Below, piece after piece: positions 4,069 through 30,892 of a stretch of DNA of 32,000 nt. The notes beneath the pieces were generated by a model. It was not told the DNA's origin. It made no database searches and saw only the letters and a program-made list of their open reading frames with translations. The stretch is from positions 26,415-58,414 of the forward strand of contig NQJD01000013.1 of the NCBI GenBank assembly GCA_004284765.1, read 5' to 3'. The translations under genes and the position numbers were made by a program. Position 1 is the stretch's first letter. Every line of letters begins with the position of its first letter. Origin of the DNA: Candidatus Electronema aureum (GTDB taxonomy: Bacteria; Desulfobacterota; Desulfobulbia; Desulfobulbales; Desulfobulbaceae).

Positions 4069-5511
4069 TCAGACAAAGTCGATGCTCACTGGGCAGTGGT
4101 CGGAGCCGTGGATATCATCGTGAATTTCGGCGGCCCGGACTCGGTTTCGGCTGCGTTCGTCCACGACGAAATAATCGATCCGCCAGCCCACATTGCGCTG
4201 CCGAGCAGCGGTGCGGTAGCTCCACCAGCTGTAGCGTTCCGGCTCGGCATGAAAGAGGCGGAAGGTATCGAGATAGCCTGCTTGGACTAACTCATCCATC
4301 CAAGCTCGCTCCTCAGGAGAGAAGCCGGGACTCTGCACATTTGCTTTGGGATTGGCAAGATCGATTTCCTTGTGCGCTACATTCAAATCGCCGCACAGCA
4401 GCACTGACTTTTCCACTGCCAACTGGTTCAAATGATCCAGCATCGCTCGGTTGAATGCCTGCTTAAAGGCCAAGCGTTTCAGGCCGTCTTGGGTATTAGG
4501 AAAATAGGCGGCGACTAAGTAAAAATCAGCAAATTCAAGGGTCAGCACCCGGCCTTCGCAGTCGAATTCTTCATGTCCCAAGCCGTAACGCACCCGCAAC
4601 GGTTCTTTGCGGCTGAATACCGCCACTCCAGAGTAACCCTTTTTCTTAGCCGGATGCCACCAGACCTGATAGCCGGGGATGCTCCGGGCGGCTTCGGGCA
4701 ATTGCTCTGGCAGGGCTTTGATCTCCTGCAAAGCAATGATGTCGGCGTTCAGCTTACTCATGCTATCAAGAAAGCCTTTGTCCATCACCGCCCGCAACCC
4801 GTTGACATTCCAAGATACCAAGCGCAGGACTGGGCATGGAAACTGCTCCTTGCCTGCCGTCTTGCGCGGCTGTACACCGAGCTGCGGACAATAGGCAGCA
4901 ATCACGCAGCGGTTGCAGTGCGGAGCGCGAGGTTTACAAGTGCCTTGGCCGAACGCCACCAGCAAAGAGTTAATGCGGAGCCAGTGCTGCTGCGGCAGTT
5001 TGGCCCGCAGAGCGGTCTCGGTCTCTGCGGGACTGCGGGTCTGCACATAGCCCCAGATGTTCATGATCCGATGTACGTGGGTGTCAACGCAGATAGCAGG
5101 CTTGCTGAACGCCACCGCCATGACTAAGTTGGCGGTTTTACGACCTACGCCCGGTAGCCGGAGCAGTTCCTCGATGGTCTCTGGCACCTGCCCAGCAAAG
5201 TCACGGCGGAGAACTTCAGGCAATGCGGCAAGGTAGCGGGCTTTACTGCGAAAGAAGCCCACGGGATAGATCAGCTTTTCCAATTCCGCAACTGAAAGTC
5301 GGGCAAGAGCCTCAGCGTTTTCTGCCTGAGCAAAGAGCCGCCGAGCTGCCCCCGCCGTGACTTCGTCTTTAGTGCGAGCGGAAAGAATGGTTGCGGTCAA
5401 GACTTTGAAGGGGTCGTTCGTCTGGGCGGCAATCAAGTCAACCACCGGCACTTGGTATCCAGCAATCTCCTTGTTTAGCAGGGCAACAACAGTATCGATG
5501 GGAAAAGTCAT
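4069..5511 (-). CDS. Fusion protein: endonuclease III (Nth, HhH-GPD + 4Fe-4S loop) N-terminal half and exodeoxyribonuclease III (Xth/ExoIII AP endonuclease) C-terminal half
   Basis: Single 480-aa ORF. In aa 1-208: the HhH motif LPGVGRKTANLVM with the catalytic Lys, VDTHVHR with the Asp, and the FeS loop CKPRAPHCNRCVIAAYC (C-x6-C-x2-C-x5-C). In aa 228-480: LVSWNVNGLRA, IALQEIK, GDLNVAH, WRIDYFVVD and GSDHCPVSIDF, a complete ExoIII catalytic set. Confidence 0.85.
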   Translation of the reverse strand: MTFPIDTVVALLNKEIAGYQVPVVDLIAAQTNDPFKVLTATILSARTKDEVTAGAARRLFAQAENAEALARLSVAELEKLIYPVGFFRSKARYLAALPEVLRRDFAGQVPETIEELLRLPGVGRKTANLVMAVAFSKPAICVDTHVHRIMNIWGYVQTRSPAETETALRAKLPQQHWLRINSLLVAFGQGTCKPRAPHCNRCVIAAYCPQLGVQPRKTAGKEQFPCPVLRLVSWNVNGLRAVMDKGFLDSMSKLNADIIALQEIKALPEQLPEAARSIPGYQVWWHPAKKKGYSGVAVFSRKEPLRVRYGLGHEEFDCEGRVLTLEFADFYLVAAYFPNTQDGLKRLAFKQAFNRAMLDHLNQLAVEKSVLLCGDLNVAHKEIDLANPKANVQSPGFSPEERAWMDELVQAGYLDTFRLFHAEPERYSWWSYRTAARQRNVGWRIDYFVVDERSRNRVRAAEIHDDIHGSDHCPVSIDFV

Positions 5512-5531
5512 GGTTCGCGCTTATCAAACAC

Positions 5532-8015
5532 TCAAATGGAAACCGCTTTAGATCGTCTCCGCAAGAGTCGTAATGCGTACTGACTGCAAAGAATCAGTCC
5601 GAAACCAGCAATCACCAAGAAAAACAACTCAGATAAACCGATATGAAGTGCTATCCAGGCGACACCGATCACCGGTAAAAGTAGCATTCTCACGGCAAAG
5701 CGCAAGGTATTATGCTGACTGATGACATCAGCAATCGATGGAGAATGCTGATAATAAAAATTGATTAAAGAACGGCTGACTGCGTTACCGGACATGAATT
5801 GATCTCGGAAATCGCGAAGTATCTGTACCGCAGGATCGAAGACCGAACCAAAAGCGGCGGTTGCGATAAAGCAAGAATCAGCTGTTCTGAAGCTCACTTG
5901 GTTGCCATAATAGGTTGTGCCGCCGCTGACTGCATAGGCGCGTGCATAAAAGAAGGTGCCGGGCTTCAGATTTTTCAGCTTACTGCTGAATGCGCCACTG
6001 CCGCTGCCTGCGCTCGTGTTTCCTTCTTCGAGAAATTTGGTTTCGCTGGTAGTAGCTGTTGCATCAGCTGTGGTACTATCTGCGGCGATGGCTGTACCTA
6101 CGAAGAAATTGCCGACATTCTTCAGTGCATTGTTTACCATTTTCTCATAATCTACAAATAGCTGATAAGAATACGTAGGATCGGTTGCGGTGATAGTTAC
6201 GGCAAAAGAAATAATACCATCTGTTGTGTTCACCGCTCCGCTGGCCGTATTCTTGCAGCGAACGTAGTATTTTTTTTCTCCATCTTGCAAGTTGGTGACA
6301 AGCTGTGAATGTTCCTTTGCTCCCGTCGTGGCGAATGTGCTTGCCATTTGATCGTAATCCTTGTTCGGCGTGATATTATCATACTTACAGGTCGCGTTCA
6401 CATCCGTTGACAGGCTCAAGGTCGCATAGGCCGTGCTGATATCGCCGTTGCTGGGGGACAGATTTGACATCACCGGAGCATTATTGCTTGTGTTACTGTT
6501 TGATGAAGATGATGACGAGCTGCTTGCTGAAGATGTCAGCACGGGATTAGGCATCGTACCAAAGACAAGGCCCCGTTGGGTGACATTGCTCAGGCCGTTA
6601 AGCACCTCAGCCGGAATAATAACCGTGGTTCTGGTCAATTCATACGGCGTACCAGTTAGGATATACTGATTGCCTGTATTCACATCACTCAACGTATTGA
6701 TACCTAATACATTATTGGCAGTCGTGCTGCTGTTTGCTGCTATTGCCGTCGTGTATTTGCTCACTGCTGCTGCACTGGAACCCGCAGCTGCCTTGCTCTC
6801 GCCCACTGCCACTACGCTATTCTCAGAAACTGCGGCCAGCGCGGTTGAAGTGTCTTTGCCGCCGCTGAAACCAGTGGTCACGACAGCGGAAGTAGTAAAT
6901 TGCGCGGAGTTTTCCTGCGCCGCACCCGTATCTTTGCTGTAGGTGATGAGAAGAAACTCGCGCTGCTGATCAACGGTTTTGAACCCAGCAGCTACAATTG
7001 TTTCATCGATAACAACAACATCATACAGCACATCATCTTGAGTTCCGACAGCAGTGGCTAATACGCCTAAGTCGCTGTCCGGGCGGCCTTCAGCAGTGAA
7101 GCGGAACAGAGCCGCGTCGCGTTTGTTTTCCTTGCCGACTGAACCAGCCACCAAGATACCGCCATCCTTGTTGACAAACATGCCATAGCCTTCGCTGAAC
7201 ACGCTACTGTCCGGGGGGATGGCAATGCCGTTGTCGCCGAATTCTTTATCTAATTGCCCAGCGGCATCAAAGCCCAGCACCATCAGGCCGCGCCGCTGTC
7301 CGTCGCTGTAGGAGCCGGACACAAGAATGCGCCCGCTCTCGGTCAGGGCCACGCTTTCCGCTTGGGCATCCACACCCACCACGCTGAGAGAGAAGCCTTC
7401 TTTGGCAAAAGATAGGTCGGGTGTGCCGTTAGCCAAATACCGCCCCAGCACCACCACCCTGCCGTTTACCCCTTGGGCGACACCGGCGATGACAATGCTG
7501 CCGTCTTCTTGCACAATCATGTCGGTGATTTCGTCATGACTGCTACCCACTGCTGTGACCGCTATGCCTTCCGCGCCGAAACTGTGGTCTAAGGTGCCGT
7601 CGCTGTTGTAGCGCACTAAAGCGAAATCGCGGTTTTTGTTGCTGCTGTAGCCTCCAGCAAGGATTTTGCCGTCCGGTTGAAGGGCAAGAGTCAAGGCTTC
7701 ATCATCAAAGGAGCCAACAGCAGTGGTGACAGTGCCGTCAGAGTTGAACGCAGGATCAATGGAGCCGTCCGGCAAAAGGCGAAAAAGCATGAAATCCTTG
7801 TCCGCTGTTGTGCTGGATGATGAACCCGCAGCAACAATCTTGCCGTCTGGCTGGACAATGACCGCGTTGGCACGGCTTCCGTACACGCCCAGTTCCACTG
7901 CTACCCGGCCATTAAGGCCGAAATTGACATCAAGAGCGGCGGCGGATGCCTCGGAATAAAAGGCGGCGAGCAGGGCAGTACCAAGGGCAAGCAAACGGAT
8001 GGGATGGATATTCAT
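5532..8015 (-). CDS. Secreted delta-60-repeat (beta-propeller-like) surface protein with Ser-rich linker and C-terminal CFIATAAFGS membrane-anchor domain
   Basis: ORF track 5532..8024(-, TTG). The ATG at 8015 gives MNIHPIRLLALGTALLAAFYSEASAAA, a signal peptide. About six repeats of roughly 55 aa match the pattern DGKI(V/L)xxG....DFxLxRYxxDGxLDxxFG. A poly-Ser/Asn tract follows (SSASSSSSSSSNSNTSNN). The last 113 aa begin CFIATAAFGSVFDPAVQILRDFRDQF and end with two hydrophobic helices and RRRSK. Confidence 0.8.
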   Translation of the reverse strand: MNIHPIRLLALGTALLAAFYSEASAAALDVNFGLNGRVAVELGVYGSRANAVIVQPDGKIVAAGSSSSTTADKDFMLFRLLPDGSIDPAFNSDGTVTTAVGSFDDEALTLALQPDGKILAGGYSSNKNRDFALVRYNSDGTLDHSFGAEGIAVTAVGSSHDEITDMIVQEDGSIVIAGVAQGVNGRVVVLGRYLANGTPDLSFAKEGFSLSVVGVDAQAESVALTESGRILVSGSYSDGQRRGLMVLGFDAAGQLDKEFGDNGIAIPPDSSVFSEGYGMFVNKDGGILVAGSVGKENKRDAALFRFTAEGRPDSDLGVLATAVGTQDDVLYDVVVIDETIVAAGFKTVDQQREFLLITYSKDTGAAQENSAQFTTSAVVTTGFSGGKDTSTALAAVSENSVVAVGESKAAAGSSAAAVSKYTTAIAANSSTTANNVLGINTLSDVNTGNQYILTGTPYELTRTTVIIPAEVLNGLSNVTQRGLVFGTMPNPVLTSSASSSSSSSSNSNTSNNAPVMSNLSPSNGDISTAYATLSLSTDVNATCKYDNITPNKDYDQMASTFATTGAKEHSQLVTNLQDGEKKYYVRCKNTASGAVNTTDGIISFAVTITATDPTYSYQLFVDYEKMVNNALKNVGNFFVGTAIAADSTTADATATTSETKFLEEGNTSAGSGSGAFSSKLKNLKPGTFFYARAYAVSGGTTYYGNQVSFRTADSCFIATAAFGSVFDPAVQILRDFRDQFMSGNAVSRSLINFYYQHSPSIADVISQHNTLRFAVRMLLLPVIGVAWIALHIGLSELFFLVIAGFGLILCSQYALRLLRRRSKAVSI

Positions 8016-8109
8016 AATCAGCAAATCCTGAAGGTGAAGAACGGAGGAAATTTTGTCATCTTACCATAGCTGATTCAGCAGAAAATGACAAGTCCTTGTT
8101 GCGGCAGCT

Positions 8110-9135
8110 TTATTTGCCAAAACTACAAACTGGGTACTGGCAGAATTTACAATTTCGGCAAAGGCCACCGTGGCCCATTGCAGCGAAGTCTTCCCGACTG
8201 AGGCGTTCTCCTGCCAGAATGCGTGGCAGTACCAAATCAAAGACGGTAATTTTATGAAACATGCCGCAGGCAGGCAAACCGACCACCGACACCGTGCCGA
8301 TTCTGCCGACCAAAAACATAGCACCAGGCAGCACGGGGGTGCCGTAAACGATGTCCTTAGCCCCAGCCTCGCGAATACCGGCGCGGGTGACATCATCAGG
8401 ATCGACCGACATGCCGCCGGAGGTGATGACTAACTCCGCACCGACAGCGATACATTGGCTGATTTGCTCGGCAATTAAACCAGCATCATCTGGCGCGAAA
8501 CCCACCCGCACCACCTCTGAGCCGAGGACCGTGAGTTTGCCGCGCAGCACGGCCTCGAATTTATCTTCAATTCTGCCGTGAAAAACCTCGCTGCCAGTGA
8601 TGACTATCCCGGCCTTGACCATAGGCAAGGACAGCACTCGGACGATCTTTTCACCTGCGTTAGCAATTTCGACTGCCTGCGCAATTAAGCTTCGGTCGCC
8701 AACCAAGGGAATCAAGCGAACAGCTGCTACTTGCTCGCCTTTTTTCACCGGCGTATTGTCATGCAAGGTGGAACACATCACTTCGCCGAGCAAATTGAAG
8801 CGGAACGAAGCTTCTTTATCAATTTTTAGCAGGCCATCATGGGCAGCAAGAATGCTCACCTTGCCTTCATGTACGTCATCAGAGTATTCCACGCCGCTGC
8901 CCGCCAAAGCCGCAGCCATCAATAGTGCTGCTTCGTTTTCATGAATTTCCTCAGCTGCAAGCTCAAGGACGTAAATATGCTCCTTTCCTAAGCTGCGCAG
9001 GCGGTCAATATCTTCCTGGCGGACAATATGTCCTTTTTTAAAAGCTCGTCCTTTGAATTTGTCTTGAACAATTTCAGTGATGTCATGAGGCAGAACCATG
9101 CCCACGGCTTGATCAACAGGGATACACTTTTTCAT
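8110..9135 (-). CDS. Molybdopterin-binding (MoCF-biosynthesis domain) protein, MoeA-related but shorter
   Basis: ORF 8110..9135(-). MoaB/MogA-type domain motifs are GIVITGSEVF, ELVITSGGMSVDPDDVTRAGI and PGAMFLVG. The tail is Cys-rich (CRNCKFCQYPVC). At 341 aa it is shorter than canonical MoeA (about 400 aa). Confidence 0.65.
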   Translation of the reverse strand: MKKCIPVDQAVGMVLPHDITEIVQDKFKGRAFKKGHIVRQEDIDRLRSLGKEHIYVLELAAEEIHENEAALLMAAALAGSGVEYSDDVHEGKVSILAAHDGLLKIDKEASFRFNLLGEVMCSTLHDNTPVKKGEQVAAVRLIPLVGDRSLIAQAVEIANAGEKIVRVLSLPMVKAGIVITGSEVFHGRIEDKFEAVLRGKLTVLGSEVVRVGFAPDDAGLIAEQISQCIAVGAELVITSGGMSVDPDDVTRAGIREAGAKDIVYGTPVLPGAMFLVGRIGTVSVVGLPACGMFHKITVFDLVLPRILAGERLSREDFAAMGHGGLCRNCKFCQYPVCSFGK

Positions 9136-9461: not shown

Positions 9462-9575
9462 AGAAGTTACGTAGGCTTAAAATATAACGAATTGATTTTA
9501 TTCATGAGTTTCTTTTTATGAAAAAGATAACCTGCTTGAATTATTCATTTTGTAATATTGAACTGCGTAACTCCT
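9462..9575. repeat. 114-bp MITE-like element, copy A (degenerate left TIR, intact right TIR)
   Basis: The right end tgaactgcgtaactcct (9559-9575) matches the right TIR of the 27698-27811 copy at 16 of 17 positions. The left end agaagttacgtagg resembles aggagttacgcagt. Shared internal blocks are ttgatttt(a/g)ttca, tttatg and tgtaata. The two copies have the same length. This one starts 8 nt after the trm112-like stop. Confidence 0.6.
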
Positions 9576-9608
9576 ATTAATTTTTCGCAAGTCCCATGTT
9601 TGAAAATT

Positions 9609-9617: not shown

Positions 9618-9784
9618 CAATCGGGGTTTGTTATGAATCGGTTTTCTTTTTTGCCTTGCCAGACTGCTGAAGAAATTATATTCTAATGAAGAAAAGCTGT
9701 TCTCTTATTGTGCTTGTTTTTTCGTAAATACTCGAAATAGATGAGGCATGAGAGAAAAAATTAACAGAAAAGGAGAGTTGGAAC

Positions 9785-10909
9785 ATGAAAGTGAAGATGC
9801 TGCTGCAAACTGCTGCGCTACTGCTTCTATCAGCAGGGCTTGCCCAAGCCGGAGGTACTAAGTTCGGCAAAAAACATTTGACTTGCGATGATTGTTCAGC
9901 AGAGTGCCTGAAAAATCCCTATGCTAAAGGCTGCCCGGATATCTGCAAGTCACCTGATTGTCAGGCATCTTGCAATGACTGCCCGGCAGAATGTAAGCAG
10001 CATCCGGGCGCGAAGGGTTGTCCTGAGATATGTACAGATATCAAATGTCAGTCCTGTGAAGATTGCACCCCTGAATGCAAAAAGAATCCTACAGACACAA
10101 GCTGCCCAGATATCTGCAAGGACATGAAATGCTACACGTGCGATGACTGCTCGGTAGAATGTGTCATTGATCCTACTGGTAAAGATTGTTCTCCAGTCTG
10201 CGCTGATCTCGGTTGCAATGTCTGTGATAAATTTCCCAAAGATTGTCCGGCCTCATGCAAGGACAACCCGAACGACCCTGATAAATGTCGCGCTGAATGC
10301 AAGGATGTTCCTGAAAAATGCTTGCTACCAAAGGGAACCTGCGATGATTGTTCTCCGGCATGTAAAGATGGCACTGAAAAAGATCCAGAGGCCTGTAAAT
10401 CTTGTCCGCAGGAATGTCTGCCGGAGTTACCACCGGTTGTTGAGACTGAACGGCCTTTCAAGTTTGTTGGTGATCTCGGCTACTTCAAGCAGACTGATCC
10501 GGCAGATTACATCTTTGGACGGTTCGGCGTAGAATATAGTCCCTTTGCTACAGGCAGCGAATTTGAAAACATCTCTTTCTTGGGCATGATTGGTGCTGCC
10601 GCACAAGTGAACGGTACAGATGGTGACGATGCGCTATTGCTGGATGTTTTTGCCAACTACAACTGGAAGGCAGGCGATGTTGACGGCTGGGTCGGTCTCG
10701 GTGTGGGTGGCTGGATCACCTCCGGCGATGTGGAAGATGATTCAGGAGACACTGACATAGATGTTATGGCCAACATCGGTGCCCGCGTCTATGGCGATCC
10801 AAAAGATTTCAATGTATCTTTCTTCTTAGAGGTACGCAGTGCGGTTGATGAGTTTGACGGTTTGGCCGAATATGGTCGTTTCGGTGCAGGTGTTCGCTGC
10901 AAGTTCTAA
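9785..10909 (+). CDS. Secreted cysteine-rich tandem-repeat protein with C-terminal outer-membrane beta-barrel-like domain
   Basis: RBS aaggagag lies about 7 nt upstream of the ATG at 9785. The Sec-type signal peptide is MKVKMLLQTAALLLLSAGLAQA, with no twin-Arg. Aa 34-211 contain 36 Cys in 178 aa. Aa ~225-374 show alternating hydrophobic/Gly-rich strands ending ...RFGAGVRCKF, with the terminal Phe typical of OMP C-termini. Confidence 0.75.
   Translation: MKVKMLLQTAALLLLSAGLAQAGGTKFGKKHLTCDDCSAECLKNPYAKGCPDICKSPDCQASCNDCPAECKQHPGAKGCPEICTDIKCQSCEDCTPECKKNPTDTSCPDICKDMKCYTCDDCSVECVIDPTGKDCSPVCADLGCNVCDKFPKDCPASCKDNPNDPDKCRAECKDVPEKCLLPKGTCDDCSPACKDGTEKDPEACKSCPQECLPELPPVVETERPFKFVGDLGYFKQTDPADYIFGRFGVEYSPFATGSEFENISFLGMIGAAAQVNGTDGDDALLLDVFANYNWKAGDVDGWVGLGVGGWITSGDVEDDSGDTDIDVMANIGARVYGDPKDFNVSFFLEVRSAVDEFDGLAEYGRFGAGVRCKF
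9884..10417 (+). repeat. Coding tandem repeat: four 28-29-aa six-Cys modules plus two degenerate six-Cys modules
   Basis: The modules are CDDCSAECLKNPYAKGCPDICKSPDCQAS, CNDCPAECKQHPGAKGCPEICTDIKCQS, CEDCTPECKKNPTDTSCPDICKDMKCYT and CDDCSVECVIDPTGKDCSPVCADLGCNV. Spacing is C-x2-C-x3-C-x8-C-x3-C-x4-C. Nucleotide units have diverged while Cys positions are kept. Confidence 0.85.
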
Positions 10910-10919
10910 GGTATAAACA

Positions 10920-10954
10920 GGGTCTGCCGGTCGGCAGACCCTTCTGATTTTTTT
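10920..10954 (+). terminator. Rho-independent terminator after the Cys-rich OMP gene
   Basis: The GC-rich hairpin gggtctgc-cggtcg-gcagaccc is followed by ttctgattttttt and starts 11 nt after the stop. Confidence 0.8.
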
Positions 10955-10996
10955 CCCATTTTTTTCTATATCATCATATTGTGTGTTGCCTTTTTC

Positions 10997-11024
10997 TTGC
11001 AAAAAGAAAAAGTAAGCTATAAAT
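10997..11024 (+). promoter_or_regulatory. Candidate sigma70-type promoter for the GT2-dapF unit
   Basis: ttgcaa (10997-11002), a 15-16 nt spacer, then tataaat (11018-11024), about 90 nt upstream of the ATG at 11112. Pattern match only. Confidence 0.3.
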
Positions 11025-11111
11025 TATGCAATTAAAGTTGTAATGAGATGACTTTTAAAAAATAAGCAGGCAGGAATCAACCTGTTTTCACGCTGAATAG
11101 AGACGTTTGAT

Positions 11112-11848: not shown

Positions 11849-12703
11849 ATGAACATTCCTGAATTTCCCATCCCCTTTGTCAAAATGAGTGGCACCGGCA
11901 ATGATTTTATCCTCATTGACCACCGCCAGCCGCTGATCGAGCCTGAATCCATGTCCGCCTTTGCCGCTGCTGTCTGCCGCCGCAAGTTTTCGGTCGGCGC
12001 GGACGGGTTGATTCTGATTGAAAATTCTGAGCAGGCTGATTTCCGCTGGCGTTTTTTCAACGCCGATGGCTCGGTTGCGGAAATGTGCGGCAACGGAGCG
12101 CGCTGCGCGGCCCGCTTCGCCTTCATGCAGGGCATTGCTCCGGCGAAAATGCGCTTTGAAACTTTAGCTGGGATCATCGAGGCGGAGGTTTCTGGTGACG
12201 AAGTAGCAGTGAAGATGACCGAGCCTCGTGATCTGCGCCTGCATCAGACCATCAGTGTTAACAACGCGCCGCTCATCATGCACAGCCTCAACACCGGTGT
12301 GCCTCATGCGGTGGTCTTTGTTGACAATATCGAAGAAACCGACGTGTGTGGCCTTGGCAGGGCGATCCGTTATCACGAAGCCTTTCAACCTGCTGGCACC
12401 AATGTCAATTTTGTCCAGAAGCGCGGCGAGGCCTTCAAGGTACGCACCTACGAACGCGGCGTGGAGGATGAAACCCTCGCCTGCGGCACCGGCTCCGCTG
12501 CCAGCGCGATCATCGCCGCCTTGTTGGGCCAAGCTGCCTCGCCCGTCGAAATTATCACCTCTGGCAACGACCGGTTGATGATTTTGTTCGACCTGAGCAA
12601 GGTTAAGGCTGGCGGAACAGGGCCGATTGTTTATAATGTTTTCCTCAAAGGCCCGGCCCGGATTATTTACGAGGGAGAACTGCGCAACGAGGCATTGCTT
12701 TAA
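11849..12703 (+). CDS. dapF: Diaminopimelate epimerase
   Basis: ORF 11849..12703(+). It has FVKMSGTGNDFILID and both catalytic Cys motifs (MCGNGARC and LACGTGS). Length is 284 aa. Confidence 0.9.
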   Translation: MNIPEFPIPFVKMSGTGNDFILIDHRQPLIEPESMSAFAAAVCRRKFSVGADGLILIENSEQADFRWRFFNADGSVAEMCGNGARCAARFAFMQGIAPAKMRFETLAGIIEAEVSGDEVAVKMTEPRDLRLHQTISVNNAPLIMHSLNTGVPHAVVFVDNIEETDVCGLGRAIRYHEAFQPAGTNVNFVQKRGEAFKVRTYERGVEDETLACGTGSAASAIIAALLGQAASPVEIITSGNDRLMILFDLSKVKAGGTGPIVYNVFLKGPARIIYEGELRNEALL

Positions 12704-12787: not shown

Positions 12788-14086
12788 ATGAATATAACAA
12801 AAAGAGATTTTTTCGTCTCAATTATTCTGTTAATTATTTCCGCTTTTTTTTTCTGTTATGTAAACTTGAGCATTAAGTCATTCGATGAATGGCATTCTTT
12901 GAAATATGCAACACCAGACAGTAAAACATATCTTGATGTTGGCAGATGGATTTTAGGTGAAAATACATTTGATAATGCAGAAAGCAGCGTTGCGATAAGA
13001 CCTTTTTTTTATCCTCTCGTTATTGTAATTTTAGATTCAATACATCCTTTAGCTGTAGCAATATTTCAATTTACTTTATGGCAGATTCAAATTTTGATGA
13101 TTTATTTTTTTTGTATTAAAGTAAGCAGATTATTTATTTTGTCAATTTTAGTCTCGGTGTTAAGTATTGGCATCCTTTCTCCTATAGGGATATCTTTACA
13201 TGCTCTCACGGAAACGTTATCATCATTTTTCATTACTTTTTCCATATTCATATTTATCTTTTTTTTGGAAAAAAATTCATACAGATATATTTATGCATAT
13301 TTATTATCGTTATCTTTTTGTTCCGCAACCAGACCATCTTATATATATGTATATATTTTTTCAATAATGATACTTTTCTTTTTTTTAATAAAAAAAAGGA
13401 AGTTTTTTTATATATGCATACTTGCAACAACATTTCTTCCGATATCATTACAATATTATGTAATGAAGAAACATTTTGATAGCTACAAATTATCTTTTAT
13501 TGATTCCTTTGCTATAAATGATTATTTTTTATCAGGACTTGAGCTGTATAAAAGAAAAGTTGAATTTGATGCTAATAGAAATTTATACATACGAATGGTT
13601 CGCGATGCGAGACGTGAATATATGGCAGAAATGATTAAGGAAAAAGGGTATGGAGAAACATCAAAAAAAGTAAAAAGTGATCTTCTTGCCAGTTTAGTTA
13701 ATTACCCTAATGAAAGTCTTCGTCAATTTAAAGACTTAATTATTGAAAATTCAATGCAGCCATCATCATTTATTACGGCTAATAAAAATTTATACATTGC
13801 TACTTTTGCTCAAAGCAAACTTCTTTTGACAATAAATATAATTTCTGCTTTATTTTTTTCTGTGATTATTTTTAATAAAAAATATTTTGCTGAAGAAATT
13901 TATGAAAAAAATATCGTATTCAGCTTGTTGATATTTTTCTGCATATATTTTACATATATTTCTACAGGGCTTACCTTCTGGCAAGGAGACAGATTTATTA
14001 TTCCTATATACTATGCAAGTATCATGTTGTTTGTGCATCAAACAAGAATGTTTTTTGCATTTATCAGAAATACAAATAAGAAATAA
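12788..14086 (+). CDS. Polytopic integral membrane protein, possibly a GT-C-type (PMT_2/ArnT-like) glycosyltransferase
   Basis: ORF 12788..14086(+), 432 aa and extremely AT-rich. It has about 10 or more hydrophobic segments. The first loop, YATPDSKTYLDVGRWILGEN, weakly recalls the acidic first-loop motif of GT-C enzymes. The functional call is tentative. Confidence 0.6.
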   Translation: MNITKRDFFVSIILLIISAFFFCYVNLSIKSFDEWHSLKYATPDSKTYLDVGRWILGENTFDNAESSVAIRPFFYPLVIVILDSIHPLAVAIFQFTLWQIQILMIYFFCIKVSRLFILSILVSVLSIGILSPIGISLHALTETLSSFFITFSIFIFIFFLEKNSYRYIYAYLLSLSFCSATRPSYIYVYIFSIMILFFFLIKKRKFFYICILATTFLPISLQYYVMKKHFDSYKLSFIDSFAINDYFLSGLELYKRKVEFDANRNLYIRMVRDARREYMAEMIKEKGYGETSKKVKSDLLASLVNYPNESLRQFKDLIIENSMQPSSFITANKNLYIATFAQSKLLLTINIISALFFSVIIFNKKYFAEEIYEKNIVFSLLIFFCIYFTYISTGLTFWQGDRFIIPIYYASIMLFVHQTRMFFAFIRNTNKK

Positions 14087-14669: not shown

Positions 14670-14675
14670 TTTTTC

Positions 14676-14954
14676 TATCAAAGAAACTGACGTGCTCGGC
14701 TTTGGCCGAGTGATCCGCTGTCGCGAAGCCTTTCAGCCTGCAAACACTAACGTCAACTTTGTGCGGACGTGCAGCTTGGCCAAGCTACTTCGCCCGTTGA
14801 AATTATCACCTCCGGCAACGACCGCCTGACGATTTTATTCAACCTGCCGGAGCATAAGGCTGGCGGAACTGCGCCAATTGTTTATAATGTTTTCCTCAAA
14901 GGGCCTGCTCATGCGGTCTATCAGGGCGAGCTGACCGCCGAGGCATTGCTTTAA
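14676..14954 (+). pseudogene. Decayed second copy of the dapF 3' end (internal deletion plus frameshift, catalytic Cys region lost)
   Basis: 14681-14765 translates ETDVLGFGRVIRCREAFQPANTNVNFV, compared with dapF ETDVCGLGRAIRYHEAFQPAGTNVNFV (nt 12334 onward). About 36 codons including LACGTGS are missing. The frame then shifts to ORF 14769..14954: LGQATSPVEIITSGNDRLTILFNLPEHKAGGTAPIVYNVFLKGPAHAVYQGELTAEALL, compared with the dapF C-terminus LGQAASPVEIITSGNDRLMILFDLSKVKAGGTGPIVYNVFLKGPARIIYEGELRNEALL. Confidence 0.85.
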
Positions 14955-14970: not shown

Positions 14971-15861
14971 ATGACAGCAGCACAACGAATTCAGGGCGCG
15001 ATCACCGCGATTGTCACCCCGATGCGCGACGGCAGAGTTGACGAGGAAAGCCTCGTCAATCTGATCAATTTTCAGATCGACAACGGCATTCATGGCCTCG
15101 TGCCCTGCGGCACCACCGGCGAATCAGCCACCCTCAGCTTTGCCGAGCACAAGCGGGTGATCGAGCTGACCGTGAAGACCGTGGCAGGCCGGGTGCCGGT
15201 CATTGCCGGAACCGGGGCCAACAACACTCTTGAGGCCATCGAGTTGACCGAGTCGGCCAAGGACAGCGGCGCGGACGCAGTACTCTCTGTGGTGCCCTAT
15301 TACAATAAGCCGAGCCAGGAAGGGCTGTACCGGCATTTCAAGGCCATCACCGAAACGGTGGATATTCCGGTGGTGCTCTACAACGTGCCAGGCCGCACCG
15401 TCACCAATATGGCTCCGGCCACGGTCGCACGGCTGGCCGAGCTGCCCAATGTCATCGGCATTAAGGAGGCCTGCGGCTGCCTGAACCAGATTTCCGAGAT
15501 CATCCGCATCTGCCCGAAGGACTTCATTGTGCTTTCTGGCGATGACTTCACTTCCATGCCCACCGTGCTGATTGGCGGCAATGGCGTGATCTCAGTGACC
15601 TCGAACGTAGCTCCTAAAGCGATGGCCGAGCTGATGGAAGCGGCCCTGCGCGGCGATTTGGCCAAGGCCAAGGAGATTCATTACAAATTCTTCCCGCTCA
15701 TGGGCACGATGTTCTGCTATCCCAGCCCAGCTCCGGCGAAAAAGGCCGTGCATCTGATTGGCAAGATTGCCTCGCCGGAAGTGCGCCTGCCGATGACCGA
15801 GATGGACGAGCCGTCGCTGAACAAGCTGACTGCTGAGATGAAGAAGGTGGGATTGATTTGA
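14971..15861 (+). CDS. dapA: 4-hydroxy-tetrahydrodipicolinate synthase
   Basis: ORF 14971..15861(+). RBS aaggagaa precedes the ATG. Motifs are VPCGTTGES, YYNKP, LYNVPGRT and the Schiff-base Lys context NVIGIKEA. Confidence 0.9.
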   Translation: MTAAQRIQGAITAIVTPMRDGRVDEESLVNLINFQIDNGIHGLVPCGTTGESATLSFAEHKRVIELTVKTVAGRVPVIAGTGANNTLEAIELTESAKDSGADAVLSVVPYYNKPSQEGLYRHFKAITETVDIPVVLYNVPGRTVTNMAPATVARLAELPNVIGIKEACGCLNQISEIIRICPKDFIVLSGDDFTSMPTVLIGGNGVISVTSNVAPKAMAELMEAALRGDLAKAKEIHYKFFPLMGTMFCYPSPAPAKKAVHLIGKIASPEVRLPMTEMDEPSLNKLTAEMKKVGLI

Positions 15862-15917: not shown

Positions 15918-16856
15918 ATGAAGAAAAGACCGAGAATTATTCAGAAAACAAAAAGCCTTTTGCAGAAAGAAATATCATCGATATGTCCTTTCTGTGATAA
16001 TGAGGATGTCGATCATTTTCATTTTCATCATATTGATGAAAATCCAGAAAACAACGACATGCTTAACCTCTTGATGCTATGCCCTATTTGTCACTCAAAA
16101 ATTACAAAGGGCGATATAACGAGAGAAGATGTTGAACGGAAAAAGCGAGACATATCAACTAATCAAAAGGACGTTCTTTTGTTTTTTCAAGAAATAGCTC
16201 CGCTTGTATTTGACTTGATTATTTTTGGAGAACAGGAGAAGGATCGTAGCATAAATCCTTGGGTCAGCAGGCTGGAATCAAGATACAGCGAGATATCTAA
16301 CGAATTAAGAAGATTAGCTATTAAAGATGTTTCTATTCAGAAAGGATGGACTGTCTTGTTAGATGAATTGGCAAAGTCTATTGATAATTTTGTTAATAGG
16401 GAAGTTTGTCTGTATCGCGGCTTAACAGAAGACATTAAAGATGCCGTGGAAAAAGCTAAACACCTCAAGGTATCGATAATTGATCCTTTTTTCGCTTCAC
16501 AAAGGGCACCTTTAACACTTAAAAAAGATTTTGCGATGCAACTCAGGATGTTAAAAAGCCTGAATGATAGAGCGGAAATGATGCTCAACGAAGGAAAAAT
16601 TGAGGAGTTACAGGGGAAAGTCTCAGAAATAGGTCACGATTTATTGATATTGAGCATGTACAATACAGAGGATTTCCCGAAAGCTATAAAAGGAAAATTA
16701 TATAGCATTTCAAGAGAAATCCATTTAATGGAAACAAAGAGAAATAATCATTCTTTCGATAGACAGGAGTCATTCAGAAATCGACTCAATGAACTTAGCG
16801 GACAATTAAACGCGCTGGCAGTAGAACTGCCGAATGTAACGTATGCAGCAAACTGA
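15918..16856 (+). CDS. HNH endonuclease domain protein with a roughly 240-aa uncharacterised helical C-terminal region
   Basis: ORF 15918..16856(+). N-terminal HNH: CPFCDNEDVDHFHFHHIDENPENNDMLNLLMLCPICHSKI (C-x2-C ... HH ... N ... C-x2-CH). I recognise no motif in the remainder, which is Lys/Glu/Leu-rich. The gene is AT-rich relative to dapA and dapB. Confidence 0.7.
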   Translation: MKKRPRIIQKTKSLLQKEISSICPFCDNEDVDHFHFHHIDENPENNDMLNLLMLCPICHSKITKGDITREDVERKKRDISTNQKDVLLFFQEIAPLVFDLIIFGEQEKDRSINPWVSRLESRYSEISNELRRLAIKDVSIQKGWTVLLDELAKSIDNFVNREVCLYRGLTEDIKDAVEKAKHLKVSIIDPFFASQRAPLTLKKDFAMQLRMLKSLNDRAEMMLNEGKIEELQGKVSEIGHDLLILSMYNTEDFPKAIKGKLYSISREIHLMETKRNNHSFDRQESFRNRLNELSGQLNALAVELPNVTYAAN

Positions 16857-16970: not shown

Positions 16971-17783
16971 ATGACCAAAGTAATTGTAGCCGGAGCAGCC
17001 GGTCGGATGGGCCGCCGCATCTGCGACATGGTGCGGCAGCATCGCGACCTAACCTTGAGCGCGGCCTTTGAACACGCGGACAGCCCTTTTATCGGCAAGG
17101 ATGTCGGTGAAGTGGCGGGCTTCGGCGCGACCGGCGTGAAAATATCTGCGGGCTTGGAATCAGTGATTGATCAAGGCGAGGTGATTATTGATTTCACCTT
17201 CCACAAGGCCACGATGGAATTCATCAAAGTTGCGGCCAAGCATGGCCGGGCAATGGTGATTGGCACCACCGGCCTGACTGCGGAGAATATCGCAGTGCTG
17301 CGCGAGACCGCCGCAGGCCATTTCCCCTGCGTTCAGTCGCCCAACATGGCCGTGGGCGTGAACGTGCTGTTCAAGCTGGTGGAGAAAACCGCTGCCGTGC
17401 TGGGCAATGCTTATGATGTGGAGATTGTCGAGGCGCACCACCGAATGAAGAAGGATGCGCCGTCCGGCACCGCGCTCCGGCTGGGCGAAATGGCCGCTGC
17501 TGGCTTGGGCCGCAATCTGGCGGAAGTGGGCGTGTATGAGCGGCACGGCATGATCGGCGAGCGCACGGACAAGGAGATCGGCATCCAGACCATCCGGGCC
17601 GGGGATATTGTCGGCGAGCATACCGTCTATTTCGCTGGTGCGGGCGAGCGGATCGAGATCACTCATCGCGCCCACAGCCGCGACAACTTCGCACGCGGCG
17701 CGGCCTTGGCTGCGGCGTGGGTTGCGGACAAGCCCAAGGGATTGTACACCATGTTTGACGTGCTTGATCTGGGCAATTTCTAA
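16971..17783 (+). CDS. dapB: 4-hydroxy-tetrahydrodipicolinate reductase
   Basis: ORF 16971..17783(+). Motifs are KVIVAGAAGRMGRRI (the NAD(P) site) and the signature EAHHRMKKDAPSGTA. Confidence 0.9.
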   Translation: MTKVIVAGAAGRMGRRICDMVRQHRDLTLSAAFEHADSPFIGKDVGEVAGFGATGVKISAGLESVIDQGEVIIDFTFHKATMEFIKVAAKHGRAMVIGTTGLTAENIAVLRETAAGHFPCVQSPNMAVGVNVLFKLVEKTAAVLGNAYDVEIVEAHHRMKKDAPSGTALRLGEMAAAGLGRNLAEVGVYERHGMIGERTDKEIGIQTIRAGDIVGEHTVYFAGAGERIEITHRAHSRDNFARGAALAAAWVADKPKGLYTMFDVLDLGNF

Positions 17784-26964: not shown

Positions 26965-27696
26965 ATGCCGCTCACGGCAATTATTCTGGCTGGAGGCAAA
27001 CAAACTCGACTGCGAGACATAGGTCTTTCCTGTCCAAAAGCCTTAGCAGAGTTATCAGGAACGCCTCTGCTCAACTATCAGATTCGGCAGCTTCAACAAG
27101 TTGCAACGTCCATTATTATTGCCGGAGGACGGTTGTCAGATATTTTTTACAGGATATATGCAACTTCTTCTCCTGTTAAAATCTCGCCAGACCCAGTAAT
27201 TGGAACAGGAGTGGCATTATTGGAGGCTGCGAAAATAATTACTGATGATCATCTCATCATCTGCAATGCGGATACGGTCAACGATCTTCCATTGCAGGAT
27301 ATTGTTGATCATTATTTTCTTCACTACGCTTCTTTGTGCATGATCGTCCTGACAAGGCGTGAAGGCGTGCAAAATTCAGGTGCATTTGCTGTAGATGCAA
27401 GCAACCGGGTAATCCGATCCTATGAAGATAGAAACCTTGGATCTCCGCCACACCCTGAAGCTGTATGGCATGGAGCAAGCACCGGTGTGATAATGATGCC
27501 ACGCAGATTGCTGCGCAATGTTCACCCGTTTCAATCGCATTCACTGGAGCAAGATATACTGCCTGAACTTATCTGGCGTGGCAAAGTGTATGCGTTTGAT
27601 AATGGCACTAGTTTTTCATTAGATATCGGAACACCAGAACGGTTCGGCCAGTTTGCTAAAATCAAAAAGGACGTATTGGAATTATTCCAATACTGA
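26965..27696 (+). CDS. Sugar-phosphate nucleotidyltransferase (NTP_transferase family)
   Basis: ORF track 26914..27696(+, TTG). The ATG at 26965 gives MPLTAIILAGGKQTRLRDIGLSCPKALAELSGTPLLNYQI, a G-x-G-x-R-L type NTP loop with PKAL. The start choice is uncertain. Confidence 0.75.
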   Translation: MPLTAIILAGGKQTRLRDIGLSCPKALAELSGTPLLNYQIRQLQQVATSIIIAGGRLSDIFYRIYATSSPVKISPDPVIGTGVALLEAAKIITDDHLIICNADTVNDLPLQDIVDHYFLHYASLCMIVLTRREGVQNSGAFAVDASNRVIRSYEDRNLGSPPHPEAVWHGASTGVIMMPRRLLRNVHPFQSHSLEQDILPELIWRGKVYAFDNGTSFSLDIGTPERFGQFAKIKKDVLELFQY

Positions 27697-27697
27697 T

Positions 27698-27811
27698 AGG
27701 AGTTACGCAGTTGAATTTGCAACTCGTTGATTTTGTTCAACTGGCGGTTTATGCAACCAAAATTCAACTCACTGTAATAATTGAATTTCAGATTTCAACT
27801 GCGTAACTCCT
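27698..27811. repeat. 114-bp MITE-like element, copy B, with perfect 17-bp terminal inverted repeats
   Basis: aggagttacgcagttga (27698-27714) and tcaactgcgtaactcct (27795-27811) are exact reverse complements. The AT-rich core carries reiterated ttcaact/ttgaat submotifs. It starts 2 nt after the nucleotidyltransferase stop and is homologous to 9462-9575. Confidence 0.75.
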
Positions 27812-27930
27812 AACTGAATATACTAATTAATGTCTGTAGTTGTCAGTGCAGAACTTCTTTTTTAAAAATTGTTTGGTGCTGGGAAAAATACCGTAAAGTT
27901 TGTCGGCTGGCAACGGAACCTATCTGGACA

Positions 27931-30496: not shown

Positions 30497-30892
30497 GTTC
30501 TCCCCTTTTATTCTGATTGTTCTGTCGTTGCCGAACCGCTTCAGCATAGAGTCTCTTCTCATTAATGATAATGGCAAGATGGATGAAAAGCAAGAGGAAT
30601 CGATACGGTCTAATTTTTTGCACCGCGCTGATTCCTTTTTGATTATACTGATAATTTGCAAACAAGAACAGAAGCAGATACGGCTTTTTTTACTTTATTT
30701 TCAGGTAAGGAAACAATTTTTAATACCGCTGCGGTCATTGCCTTTATCGGAGGCGATGAATATCATCAATACTGAACAAAGTCAGTACAATGCTGGCCGA
30801 CAGAGAGCAGATATTTTTCCGAGGAATTCTTGCTGAGATCAGATAAACGAAACAACAGGGAAAAAACTATCCTGTAATTCTCTGAAAGTACT

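Follow-up and report, generated by a model that had tools for sequence, protein, structure and literature searches.

The window analysed here is a stretch of 32,000 nucleotides from Candidatus Electronema aureum GS. One open reading frame on its forward strand encodes a protein of 374 amino acids (aa), identical to the hypothetical protein CDV28_11333 (CAK8722701.1, TAA75005.1, A0A521G1W0) of this strain. A first, sequence-only reading of the DNA had guessed, conditionally, at a Desulfobulbales-type host, and the exact protein match agrees with this, Ca. Electronema aureum GS being a cable bacterium of the Desulfobulbaceae. The features of the locus, in window positions and with their basis in brackets, are the following.

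9462..9579, no strand assigned: MITE-like element, left terminal repeat degenerate (inverted repeat; alignment to a second copy)
9656..9684, forward strand: sigma-70-like promoter element, TTGCCAGA (promoter scan and conservation in orthologs)
9770..9777, forward strand: Shine-Dalgarno sequence, AAGGAGAG, last base 7 nt before the ATG (sequence reading)
9785..10909, forward strand: coding sequence of the 374-aa protein (open reading frame and translation; identity to the deposited protein)
9785..9850, forward strand: Sec (SPase I) signal peptide, aa 1-22 (sequence inspection; conserved in orthologs)
9884..10216, forward strand: four strict six-Cys modules, aa 34-59, 63-88, 91-116 and 119-144
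10223..10321, forward strand: fifth six-Cys module, aa 147-179, looser spacing, twin Cx3C retained
10340..10417, forward strand: sixth six-Cys module, aa 186-211, looser and dispensable
10418..10456, forward strand: Pro-rich linker, aa 212-224, LPELPPVVETERP (sequence; low pLDDT)
10457..10906, forward strand: predicted 8-stranded outer-membrane beta-barrel, aa 225-374 (AF2 strands, Foldseek, strand-face alternation)
10919..10952, forward strand: intrinsic terminator (10-bp stem with 7 GC pairs, then a T run)

The leader of 330 nt is AT-rich (30% GC vs. 45.6% in the whole window) and contains, as had been noticed from the sequence, a MITE-like element (approximately 118 nt), which is located distally, in a part of the leader that is not conserved. 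A second copy of this element lies at 27696-27812, and its 17-nt terminal inverted repeats are intact (TAGGAGTTACGCAGTTG and CAACTGCGTAACTCCTA). The promoter-like element (approximately 12 nt, TTATAT[AT], approximately 130 nt 5' of the ATG) was kept in 17 of the 18 ortholog upstream regions compared in Electronema and Electrothrix, and was also present 5' of the tandem type-B paralogs described below. The AGGAG/GGAG core of the Shine-Dalgarno sequence was kept in all 18 ortholog leaders. No sigma-54 promoter was found. Operators of the NikR type (GTGTTAC-N13-GTAACAC and GTATGA-N16-TCATAC) were found upstream of none of the orthologs, the sole match in this search being a weak half-site near nikM. 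The gene is monocistronic, since a strong intrinsic terminator comes after its stop codon. An Rfam match to Phe_leader over the terminator was sub-threshold and on the opposite strand, and it was taken as chance.

Export signal, cysteine modules and barrel

The N-terminus (MKVKMLLQTAALLLLSAGLAQA, followed by GG) showed on inspection a lysine-containing n-region, a hydrophobic core and a putative cleavage site after AQA. Neither a twin arginine nor a lipobox was seen in the signal peptide, and the Sec-type signal without twin arginine that had been proposed was borne out by this inspection and by its conservation in orthologs. A bacterial lipoprotein was considered and rejected (the signal ends in AQA before GG, and the first cysteine is only at residue 34).

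The protein has 37 cysteines, of which 36 lie within aa 34-211 (178 aa, 20% Cys); the remaining one, C372, is in the last barrel strand. Cysteine mapping confirmed what the sequence-only reading had described: 36 cysteines in 178 aa forming six six-Cys modules, four of them in tandem with strictly conserved spacing and two looser ones behind them (aa 147-179 and 186-211). The spacing C-x2-C-x3-C-x8-C-x3-C-x4-C is exact in modules 1-4, which repeat with a period of 28-29 aa; only 0.5% of shuffled Cys-rich segments contained at least one strict module. Modules 1-5 share a twin Cx3C (C-x3-C, 8-9 residues, C-x3-C), and module 6 has the pattern C-x3-C, 10 residues, then C-x2-C-x3-C. The spacings across the array are 2, 3, 8, 3, 4 and 2-3 residues. 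The modules have diverged from each other (42-58% amino acid, 51-62% nucleotide and 19-54% third-position identity) with every cysteine kept, which was also a claim of the earlier reading. The acidic residues flanking the cysteines are conserved (CDDC, E-C, CP[DE]IC). The array contains neither CC nor CxC and only two histidines, neither of them conserved. The CxxCH motif is absent from the protein, and a c-type cytochrome was rejected, as it had been before.

The AF2 model had a mean pLDDT of 83 over the whole protein and of approximately 80-90 in the cysteine array, where DSSP assigned short helices at or around the Cx3C motifs (e.g. 39-43 and 52-55). The modules are thereby predicted to carry two Cx3C motifs on adjacent helices, an arrangement with two short helices and a loop that recalls the twin Cx3C/Cx9C hairpins (Cox17, small Tims, plant alpha-hairpinins, the HHH peptide 5kx1). 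In such hairpins paired disulfides staple the helices, and some can bind metal once reduced. Unlike them, the window protein has six cysteines per module in a tandem array of six modules, and it is bacterial, predicted to be periplasmic and anchored in the outer membrane; the likeness is one of pattern alone, with no homology detected. Small tandem six-Cys modules with conserved acidic residues also occur in LDL-receptor class A and EGF-like domains, but these are eukaryotic and non-helical and their cysteines are spaced differently.

The proposed Pro-rich hinge (LPELPPVVE) is present and leads into the C-terminal domain of approximately 150 aa with terminal Phe, which had been taken for an outer-membrane beta-barrel and indeed models as one. 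Its eight strands (225-373) mostly exceed a pLDDT of 90, and the best barrel matches in Foldseek were OmpA (1bxw), NspA (1p4t), OprF-N (4rlc), OmpX, OmpW and PagL (E 5e-5 to 8e-4, target-normalised TM-score 0.47-0.64). The strand faces alternate between lipid-facing and polar (mean hydropathy e.g. +2.9 vs. -1.0). The C-terminus, GAGVRCKF, resembles a beta-signal (G-x-x-V-x-C-x-F), and orthologs mostly end in F-x-F/Y (G[LI]RFQ[FY]). The predicted domain thus combines a closed barrel with alternating strands, a beta-signal and, by inspection, a Sec signal, as expected of an OmpA-like 8-stranded barrel. It has in common with OmpA, OmpX, NspA and OprF-N the eight-stranded antiparallel barrel, the alternating lipid-facing residues, the polar charged lumen and the C-terminal aromatic beta-signal. 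The domain order is reversed with respect to OmpA: the Cys-rich domain, predicted to be periplasmic, is N-terminal, whereas the periplasmic domain of OmpA is the C-terminal, peptidoglycan-binding OmpA_C. Neither OMP_b-brl (PF13505) nor OmpA_membrane (PF01389) matched the protein, which belongs to no Pfam family at E ≤ 10, and a distant relative (P0044) reached only E 0.11 in the same test. Even-stranded barrels of the OmpA/OmpX type have both their N- and C-terminus in the periplasm; by this topology, the N-terminal Cys rod probably faces the periplasm.

Distribution in cable bacteria and gene neighbourhood

The cysteine array is restricted to cable bacteria. Of the first-pass homologs, the 47 with an organism name were all from Electronema or Electrothrix. 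An exhaustive search of 1.84e9 representative proteins with the full-length profile gave just 85 hits; matches to the Cys-rich region were almost wholly confined to cable-bacterial clusters, and among the relatives found by profile search at least ten cysteines were confined to the cable-bacterial branch. A search with the profile of the Cys domain (84 candidates scored) returned three cable-bacterial fragments, and all loci that aligned over the Cys-rich N-terminus in a genome scan were from cable-bacterial genomes or a Desulfobulbaceae MAG. This lineage restriction is a correlation with the cable lifestyle only.

The 30 cysteines of modules 1-5 were invariant or nearly so in 24 full-length Electronema and Electrothrix orthologs (six of six in module 5), while module 6 was missing or reduced in approximately one third of them. 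Orthologs gain or lose modules as whole units, and the cysteine count was even in all 25 type-A sequences (the window protein and the 24 orthologs). The coding sequence is under strong purifying selection (pN 0.09-0.23 vs. pS 0.61-0.94, pS being saturated).

The cysteine module is a domain without detectable relative in Pfam, NCBIfam or the PDB. The protein gave no match in Pfam (E ≤ 10) or NCBIfam, Foldseek with the Cys-domain model found nothing in the PDB at E ≤ 10, and PDB sequence searches with the Cys domain and the module profile gave no significant match, the best non-significant profile matches being the designed peptide 5kx1 (E 0.029) and the EGF-A module of LDLR (E 0.3). The earlier statement that no characterised family contains this module therefore stands for these databases. 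In the cable-bacteria papers searched by accession and locus tag, main texts and supplements (including those of PMC11976967 and PMC13047784) alike, no mention of the protein was found.

The barrel family is also very small (approximately 85 clusters at 50% identity among the 1.84e9 representatives). Two kinds of paralogs have a C-terminal barrel homologous to that of the window protein (40-58% identity), preceded by an N-terminal globular domain that the window protein lacks. In type B this domain (approximately 150 aa) is followed by Cys repeats and the barrel; type B adjoins type A in tandem in Electronema PJ, TJ and S01.Bin068. In type C it is followed by a linker or an Ig-like region and then the barrel, with 0-11 cysteines and no Cys array; this type is also found outside cable bacteria, e.g. 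in a Myxococcota MAG.

In nine of nine Electrothrix species, fd and nikMLKQ directly follow the gene. The linkage holds in YB6, despite a different other flank, and in E. gigas, though only nikLK remain there. It is absent from all nine Electronema loci, this window among them, and the nik locus of Electronema V4 contains no gene of this type. The possible link to envelope metal handling that the sequence-only reading had put forward as speculation is supported by the Electrothrix neighbourhoods and not by those of Electronema, and the nikMLKQ linkage is suggestive of a nickel role rather than decisive; given the Electronema loci, that of V4 included, it may be synteny inherited within one genus. 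A conserved partner upstream was rejected, since the 204-aa gene of Electrothrix and the 212-aa gene of Electronema (an SdhC/FrdC-type cytochrome b) are unrelated. A recurrent nickel or sulfur context for the whole barrel family was rejected as well, the neighbourhoods not being conserved: of the relatives that lack the Cys array and occur in varied contexts, one neighbours hypE-hycI-hypA-hypB, another neighbours psrABC, and no nickel or sulfur genes were seen near the others.

Possible roles at the periplasmic fibre layer

We tentatively propose that the protein is an outer-membrane-anchored, periplasm-facing stalk with a ladder of cysteines, which holds the Ni/S fibre layer to the membrane or serves as its scaffold. 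The OmpA-like barrel would anchor it in the outer membrane, and the N-terminal rod of approximately 180 residues would hang into the periplasm. Each module of the rod would be a short helix-loop-helix with the twin Cx3C and two outer cysteines. Because the rod is almost without hydrophobic core, the module fold would have to depend on pairing between cysteines (three rungs in each module) or on equivalent thiolate bridging. The resulting stalk, acidic, chemically robust and rich in thiols or disulfides, would link the outer membrane to the Ni/S-rich periplasmic fibre layer immediately beneath its ridges or scaffold this layer, with the cysteines as covalent (S-S) or coordinative (S-Ni) attachment points. 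Of the possible roles, we consider a structural one the most likely. We lean slightly towards a defined Cys-paired fold over a metal-thiolate array because of the twin Cx3C on predicted helices, the lack of CC and CxC, the pLDDT of approximately 80-90, the even cysteine counts and the gain and loss of whole modules; the cysteines may nonetheless bind metal or be in a redox-switchable state. What we infer in this proposal is the placement of the rod in the periplasm, the state of its thiols, how strongly the gene is expressed and any contact between protein and fibres. It has been suggested that the fibre sheath withstands SDS and EDTA because of numerous disulfide bridges (PMC8238962).

The alternative of a metal-thiolate array, with reduced cysteines in a sulfidic periplasm binding nickel (or Cu, Zn, Fe) as metallothioneins do, is in our judgement somewhat unlikely. 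The protein would then be a nickel store or chaperone tethered to the outer membrane and would hand the metal on to NikK/NikMLKQ or deliver it for the assembly of fibres. The cysteine content, the conserved acidic residues, the nikMLKQ neighbour in Electrothrix and the one Cys-free relative beside hypE-hycI-hypA-hypB speak for it, and so does the unusual periplasmic nickel demand of cable bacteria, for which NikA is the sole periplasmic Ni-binding candidate found (PMC11247825, PMC11976967). Against it stand the loss of the nik linkage in Electronema, the absence of a NikR box, the even cysteine counts, the scarce and unconserved histidines and the regular helices of the AF2 model. Regular, confidently predicted helices are atypical of apo-metallothioneins, although this is a soft argument. 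Like metallothioneins (the bacterial SmtA/BmtA type and the eukaryotic ones), the array is dense in cysteines and poor in aromatic and hydrophobic residues, and it could conceivably form metal-thiolate clusters. The window protein differs from metallothioneins in that it has predicted regular helices and is exported and membrane-anchored, with an array that is far longer and strictly modular. By motif, the metallothionein class was rejected (20% Cys vs. approximately 30% expected, no CC or CxC). The metallothionein-like idea of the first reading is partly supported.

An envelope spacer with disulfide-knotted modules, chemically unconnected to nickel and conduction, is unlikely. A rigid periplasmic strut would suit the shared outer membrane and the ridges of the filament, where it would set the spacing or stiffen the envelope. 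The helical-hairpin pattern, the even numbers of cysteines and the way in which modules come and go as units are consistent with this, as are the best PDB profile matches, both disulfide-constrained mini-proteins, albeit non-significant. The same holds for the relatives of the barrel family that bear other, Cys-free N-terminal domains and for another gene of the window (29615-30661), which likewise joins an N-terminal extension to a small C-terminal barrel. However, a generic spacer leaves unexplained why the Cys array occurs in cable bacteria only, why the nikMLKQ neighbourhood lasts in Electrothrix and why the acidic residues next to the cysteines are so strongly conserved.

A redox relay, in which Fe-S-like clusters or exchangeable thiol/disulfide pairs carry electrons from the outer membrane or surface to the fibres, appears very improbable. 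The spacing C-x2-C-x2-C-x3-C across the junctions 2-3, 3-4 and 4-5, with a period of 28 aa, is similar to one half of a 2[4Fe-4S] ferredoxin and is invariant in orthologs, and EDTA-sensitive redox centres have been described at the cell surface of E. aureum GS (bioRxiv 10.1101/2025.10.08.681138). Yet the fourth cysteine is not followed by Pro, the surroundings of the motif are polar or acidic rather than hydrophobic or Gly-rich, and no Fer4-type Pfam match was obtained even at E ≤ 10, so the ferredoxin and polyferredoxin classes were rejected. Moreover, Sec export and BAM insertion exclude a cofactor loaded in the cytoplasm, and we know of no periplasmic Fe-S assembly system. That the Cys-rich domain is a passenger or adhesin exposed at the cell surface is hardly credible: the order of N-terminal domain and C-terminal barrel is superficially autotransporter-like, but the barrel has eight strands instead of the 12-16 of a type V translocator, which led us to reject an autotransporter, its best matches are OmpA, OmpX and NspA, its even strand number places the N-terminus in the periplasm by OmpA/OmpX topology, and an 8-stranded barrel is too narrow for the passage of a polypeptide.

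In cable bacteria, electrons travel over centimetres along Ni/S fibres in the periplasm, and neither the genes that build these fibres nor their protein component have been identified so far. The protein scaffold of the Ni-bis(dithiolene) fibre is likewise not identified, and comparative genomics of Ni-binding proteins gave no fibre candidate (PMC11976967); the latest structural models propose that the Ni oligomers are end-capped by cysteine or bound to a protein scaffold through disulfides (PMC13534509, PMC13573619). The stalk proposed here has a bolder version, which we regard as distinctly unlikely, in which the window protein and the type-B paralogs make up a hitherto missing partner of the conductive fibres and cap or nucleate the Ni-bis(dithiolene) nanoribbons. 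The protein's 30-36 cysteines in the periplasm would furnish the proposed end-caps or disulfide links, and nanoribbons nucleated by cysteines would be fastened covalently under the ridges of the outer membrane. The candidate is cable-only and strongly conserved, has an outer-membrane anchor and 30-36 cysteines that are probably periplasmic, and has nik genes as neighbours in Electrothrix; its source strain, E. aureum GS, is a model strain. Should the link to the fibres prove wrong, the cysteine module would still lack any recognisable counterpart in Pfam, NCBIfam and the PDB. If the protein is a partner of the fibres, it would offer the first genetic handle on fibre assembly.

Architecture and predicted fold of the cysteine-rich protein

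The Cys-rich ORF CDV28_11333 (9785-10909, plus strand) encodes 374 aa with 37 cysteines. Thirty-six of them lie within aa 34-211, and the 37th (C372) is in the final beta-strand. Reading the ORF confirmed the six-Cys modules claimed by the sequence-only reading, four strict and two looser.

Cysteine modules of the protein (aa positions)
Strict modules 1-4, aa 34-59, 63-88, 91-116 and 119-144: exact C-x2-C-x3-C-x8-C-x3-C-x4-C
Looser six-Cys modules 5 and 6, aa 147-179 and 186-211: follow the strict four

Modules 1-5 have a twin Cx3C (C2-x3-C3, 8-9 residues, C4-x3-C5) and an outer pair (C1 and C6), while module 6 keeps the first Cx3C, followed by 10 residues and C-x2-C-x3-C. Shuffling the Cys-rich segment produced at least one strict module in just 0.5% of shuffles. 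Pairwise identity among the four strict modules was 42-58% (amino acids) and 51-62% (nucleotides), with third codon positions near random (19-54%) and all cysteines retained; the DNA of the modules has diverged around the cysteines, as had been proposed. The other features read from the sequence were also found: by inspection, the N-terminus (MKVKMLLQTAALLLLSAGLAQA/GG) looks like a Sec/SPase-I type signal without twin arginine or lipobox, the Pro-rich hinge is LPELPPVVE, and there is no CxxCH motif in the protein. The Cys array is acidic (37 D+E vs. 25 K+R) and contains two histidines, neither of them conserved. Hydrophobic residues are very scarce, so that folding must rely on the cysteines.

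No Pfam or NCBIfam model reached E ≤ 10 against the protein. AlphaFold2 (48-sequence alignment) gave a mean pLDDT of 83 over the whole protein and predicted eight strands within residues 225-373, mostly with pLDDT >90. The best Foldseek/PDB matches of this region were the OmpA transmembrane domain, NspA, OprF-N, OmpX, OmpW and PagL (E 5e-5 to 8e-4). Hydrophobic and polar faces alternate along the strands, and the terminal residue, Phe, closes a G-x-x-hydrophobic-x-hydrophobic-x-aromatic pattern. The outer-membrane barrel suggested earlier thus holds in the model: structurally, the C-terminal domain is predicted to be an OmpA-like 8-stranded barrel, sharing strand number and fold with that type but not a Pfam/NCBIfam signature. 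Both chain ends of OmpA-like 8-stranded barrels are periplasmic, so the N-terminal Cys array would face the periplasm. A second envelope protein of comparable layout, unrelated in sequence, is encoded at 29615-30661 (minus strand); its N-terminal extension, which includes a coiled-coil-like stretch, precedes a C-terminal OMP_b-brl barrel (Pfam E 1e-17).

The Cys array was modelled with pLDDT of about 80-90 in the full-length protein, with short helices at or around the Cx3C motifs, and a domain-only model (pLDDT 76) agreed. A twin Cx3C with an outer pair is the arrangement seen in helical hairpins stapled by disulfides. Neither Foldseek with the domain model (E ≤ 10) nor a sequence search of the domain matched anything in the PDB. 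The 28-residue module profile gave only non-significant PDB matches, to 5kx1 (a designed disulfide-constrained helical peptide, E 0.029) and LDLR EGF-A (E 0.3). Nothing detectably related to the module is present in Pfam, NCBIfam or the PDB, in line with the suspicion that no characterised family contains it. The number of cysteines in the N-terminal domain was even in all 25 type-A sequences (this protein and 24 full-length orthologs), 34- and 44-Cys variants among them; a single apparent odd count came from a mis-called start codon. Modules were gained or lost as entire units in the type-A alignment. The Cx3C pattern, the even counts and this unitary gain and loss lean weakly towards Cys pairing within modules; all are also compatible with metal binding or a redox-switchable state.

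Conservation, expression signals and distribution

The exact protein is on record (CAK8722701.1, TAA75005.1, UniRef100_A0A521G1W0), which places the window in the freshwater cable bacterium Ca. Electronema aureum GS or in a genome that does not differ from it at this gene. In the genome scan, the closest species representative was Ca. Electronema nielsenii F5 (97% identity), with GT2 and dapF downstream as in the window. Numerous genomes and metagenomes of Electronema and Electrothrix contained homologs. The 30 cysteines of modules 1-5 were invariant or nearly so in the alignment of 24 full-length orthologs, the sole exception being one ortholog that lacks exactly one module, in register. Module 6 was missing or reduced in approximately one third of the orthologs. 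Non-synonymous divergence was 0.09-0.23 in ortholog comparisons and synonymous sites were saturated (pS 0.61-0.94); dN/dS was about 0.05-0.13, where computable, for the Cys array and the barrel alike.

Of 18 orthologs spanning the two genera, 17 have a promoter-like element (TTGCCAGA, about 12 nt, TTATATA) about 130 nt 5' of the ATG, with a strong Shine-Dalgarno sequence (AAGGAGAG) after it. A 10-bp GC-rich terminator 3' of the stop codon indicates that the gene is monocistronic. No sigma-54 promoter was found upstream. Judged from its sequence, the gene is functional. A sub-threshold Phe_leader Rfam match at 10913-11032 (minus strand; 29 bits vs. a gathering score of 55, E 0.027) overlaps the terminator hairpin and is probably due to chance. 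The distal leader is not conserved among orthologs. The MITE-like element noticed there proved to be a repeat family with two copies in the window, the second with clear termini.

Copies of the MITE-like element
9462-9579, about 118 nt: leader copy, degenerate left end, 5' of the conserved promoter
27696-27812, about 117 nt: second copy, 17-nt terminal inverted repeats TAGGAGTTACGCAGTTG / CAACTGCGTAACTCCTA

A search of 1.84 billion representative proteins with the full-length profile, run without a word index, yielded just 85 hits at E ≤ 1e-3. Nearly all matched through the barrel only, and the Cys region was essentially restricted to cable-bacterial clusters. Among 127 family proteins (P0001-P0127), the cable-bacterial branch alone had 10 or more cysteines, the remainder having 0-11.

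Architectures of the barrel family
Type A: Cys array, then barrel (the protein of the window)
Type B: unannotated N-terminal domain of about 150 aa, Cys repeats, barrel
Type C: type-B-like N-terminal domain, linker or Ig-like region, barrel; no Cys array

Type C was found beyond cable bacteria too (e.g. in a Myxococcota MAG). As the array is cable-bacterial and type C is more widespread, the array looks to have arisen in cable bacteria, on outer-membrane anchors of a small family that already existed. In Electronema PJ, S01.Bin068 and TJ (loci L011, about 4472-5777, L012 and L013), a type-B paralog lies directly upstream of type A, in tandem, and bears the same promoter-like element.

Genomic context and nickel genes

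The neighbours of the Cys-rich gene in the window are housekeeping genes.

Neighbours of the Cys-rich gene and other features of the window
Upstream neighbours: MoCF_biosynth-domain protein, opposite strand; small Trm112-like gene
Downstream neighbours: GT2, dapF, methyltransferase, dapA, dapB
5532-8024, minus strand: 830-aa protein with DUF5122 beta-propeller repeats
8110-9135, minus strand: the divergent MoCF_biosynth protein (molybdopterin-binding, MoeA/MogA-like), 341 aa, Cys-rich C-terminus CRNCKFCQYPVCSFGK
12788-14086, plus strand: 432-aa ORF, no Pfam or NCBIfam match
14674-14951, plus strand: two stretches of C-terminal DapF (71-78% identity to the intact dapF, 11849-12703), just upstream of dapA; they appear to be a duplication remnant
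15918-16856, plus strand: 312-aa ORF weakly matching an HNH endonuclease, inserted between dapA (14971-15861) and dapB (16971-17783)

The MoCF_biosynth protein may be of interest given that the fibre cofactor is a dithiolene; this neighbourhood was absent at every ortholog locus with a checkable upstream flank.

In Electrothrix, nikM-nikL-nikK-nikQ and a small antisense ferredoxin gene lie about 1 kb downstream of the ortholog at every locus with enough flank (aestuarii, GW3-4, YB6, laxa, MFD10219, S24.Bin023, aarhusensis, gigas and marina; loci L002, L004, L005/L019, L014, L015, L017, L018, L021 and L027). The linkage is kept in YB6 although the other flank differs, and in E. gigas, where nikM and nikQ are relocated, nikLK alone is still linked. 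Hiralal et al. (PMC11247825) drew a matching nik locus with a "hyp." gene that was not analysed; the "hyp." of their Fig. 2C is probably the Cys-rich ortholog. The linkage was found at none of nine Electronema loci, the nik locus of Electronema V4 has no Cys-rich gene, and the non-cable relative Desulfosediminicola carries the same nik operon without it. No NikR-like operator was found upstream of the Cys-rich gene. Type-B and type-C contexts vary (one beside hypE-hycI-hypA-hypB, one beside psrABC), with no nickel or sulfur genes seen at the remaining loci checked. For the envelope metal link raised by the sequence-only reading, the nik neighbourhood speaks in Electrothrix only. The nickel association is suggestive and not established, because it is absent in Electronema, there is no NikR-like operator and the contexts of relatives vary. 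P0043, a Cys-free protein of the same barrel family, has its gene about 500 nt 3' of hypE-hycI-hypA-hypB, which serve nickel insertion into [NiFe]-hydrogenase, in one metagenome and one MAG (L028, 3735-4694; L029, 3513-4472), a neighbourhood not seen for other family members.

Possible role at the fibre layer

Recent structural work (2025-2026) describes the conductor as nanoribbons of Ni-bis(dithiolene) oligomers and considers that disulfides may join their end groups to cysteines in a protein scaffold yet to be identified (PMC13534509, bioRxiv 10.1101/2025.10.10.681601, PMC13573619). Abundant protein disulfide bridges were suggested for the SDS/EDTA resistance and high sulfur of the fibre sheath (Boschker et al. 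2021, PMC8238962). Digel et al. 2025 (PMC11976967) looked for periplasmic Ni proteins encoded by GS and RB, and no fibre candidate emerged from that genome screen. The Cys-rich protein was unreported in the literature searched for its accessions and locus tag, which contained no paper linking cable bacteria with a cysteine-rich protein.

The identification of a conserved, cable-bacteria-restricted outer-membrane protein, in which a six-module cysteine-ladder domain precedes an OmpA-like barrel, is firmly supported. The cysteine-ladder domain belongs to a type not described before and the barrel to a known kind; their joining, which would put a periplasmic domain on an outer-membrane anchor, is a new combination in the literature searched. 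As the best mechanistic reading, which we hold tentatively, the array would be a rigid, acidic, thiol/disulfide-rich stalk under the outer membrane that would tether or scaffold the Ni/S fibre layer. A nickel store or chaperone built on reduced metal-thiolate sites, the idea of the first reading, would suit the Electrothrix nik linkage but not the nine Electronema loci, and is rather unlikely. A purely structural, disulfide-knotted spacer would agree with Cys pairing within modules, towards which the evidence leans weakly; we consider it unlikely. A redox relay is very improbable. Surface display of the Cys domain is barely conceivable, since an 8-stranded barrel is too narrow for an autotransporter, which was rejected on this ground.

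That the Cys-rich protein is itself a protein partner of the conductive fibres is quite doubtful; if true, it would be much more important than the anchor variant. As a protein of the model strain, it offers a concrete and readily testable candidate for a question on the fibres that has stood for a long time.
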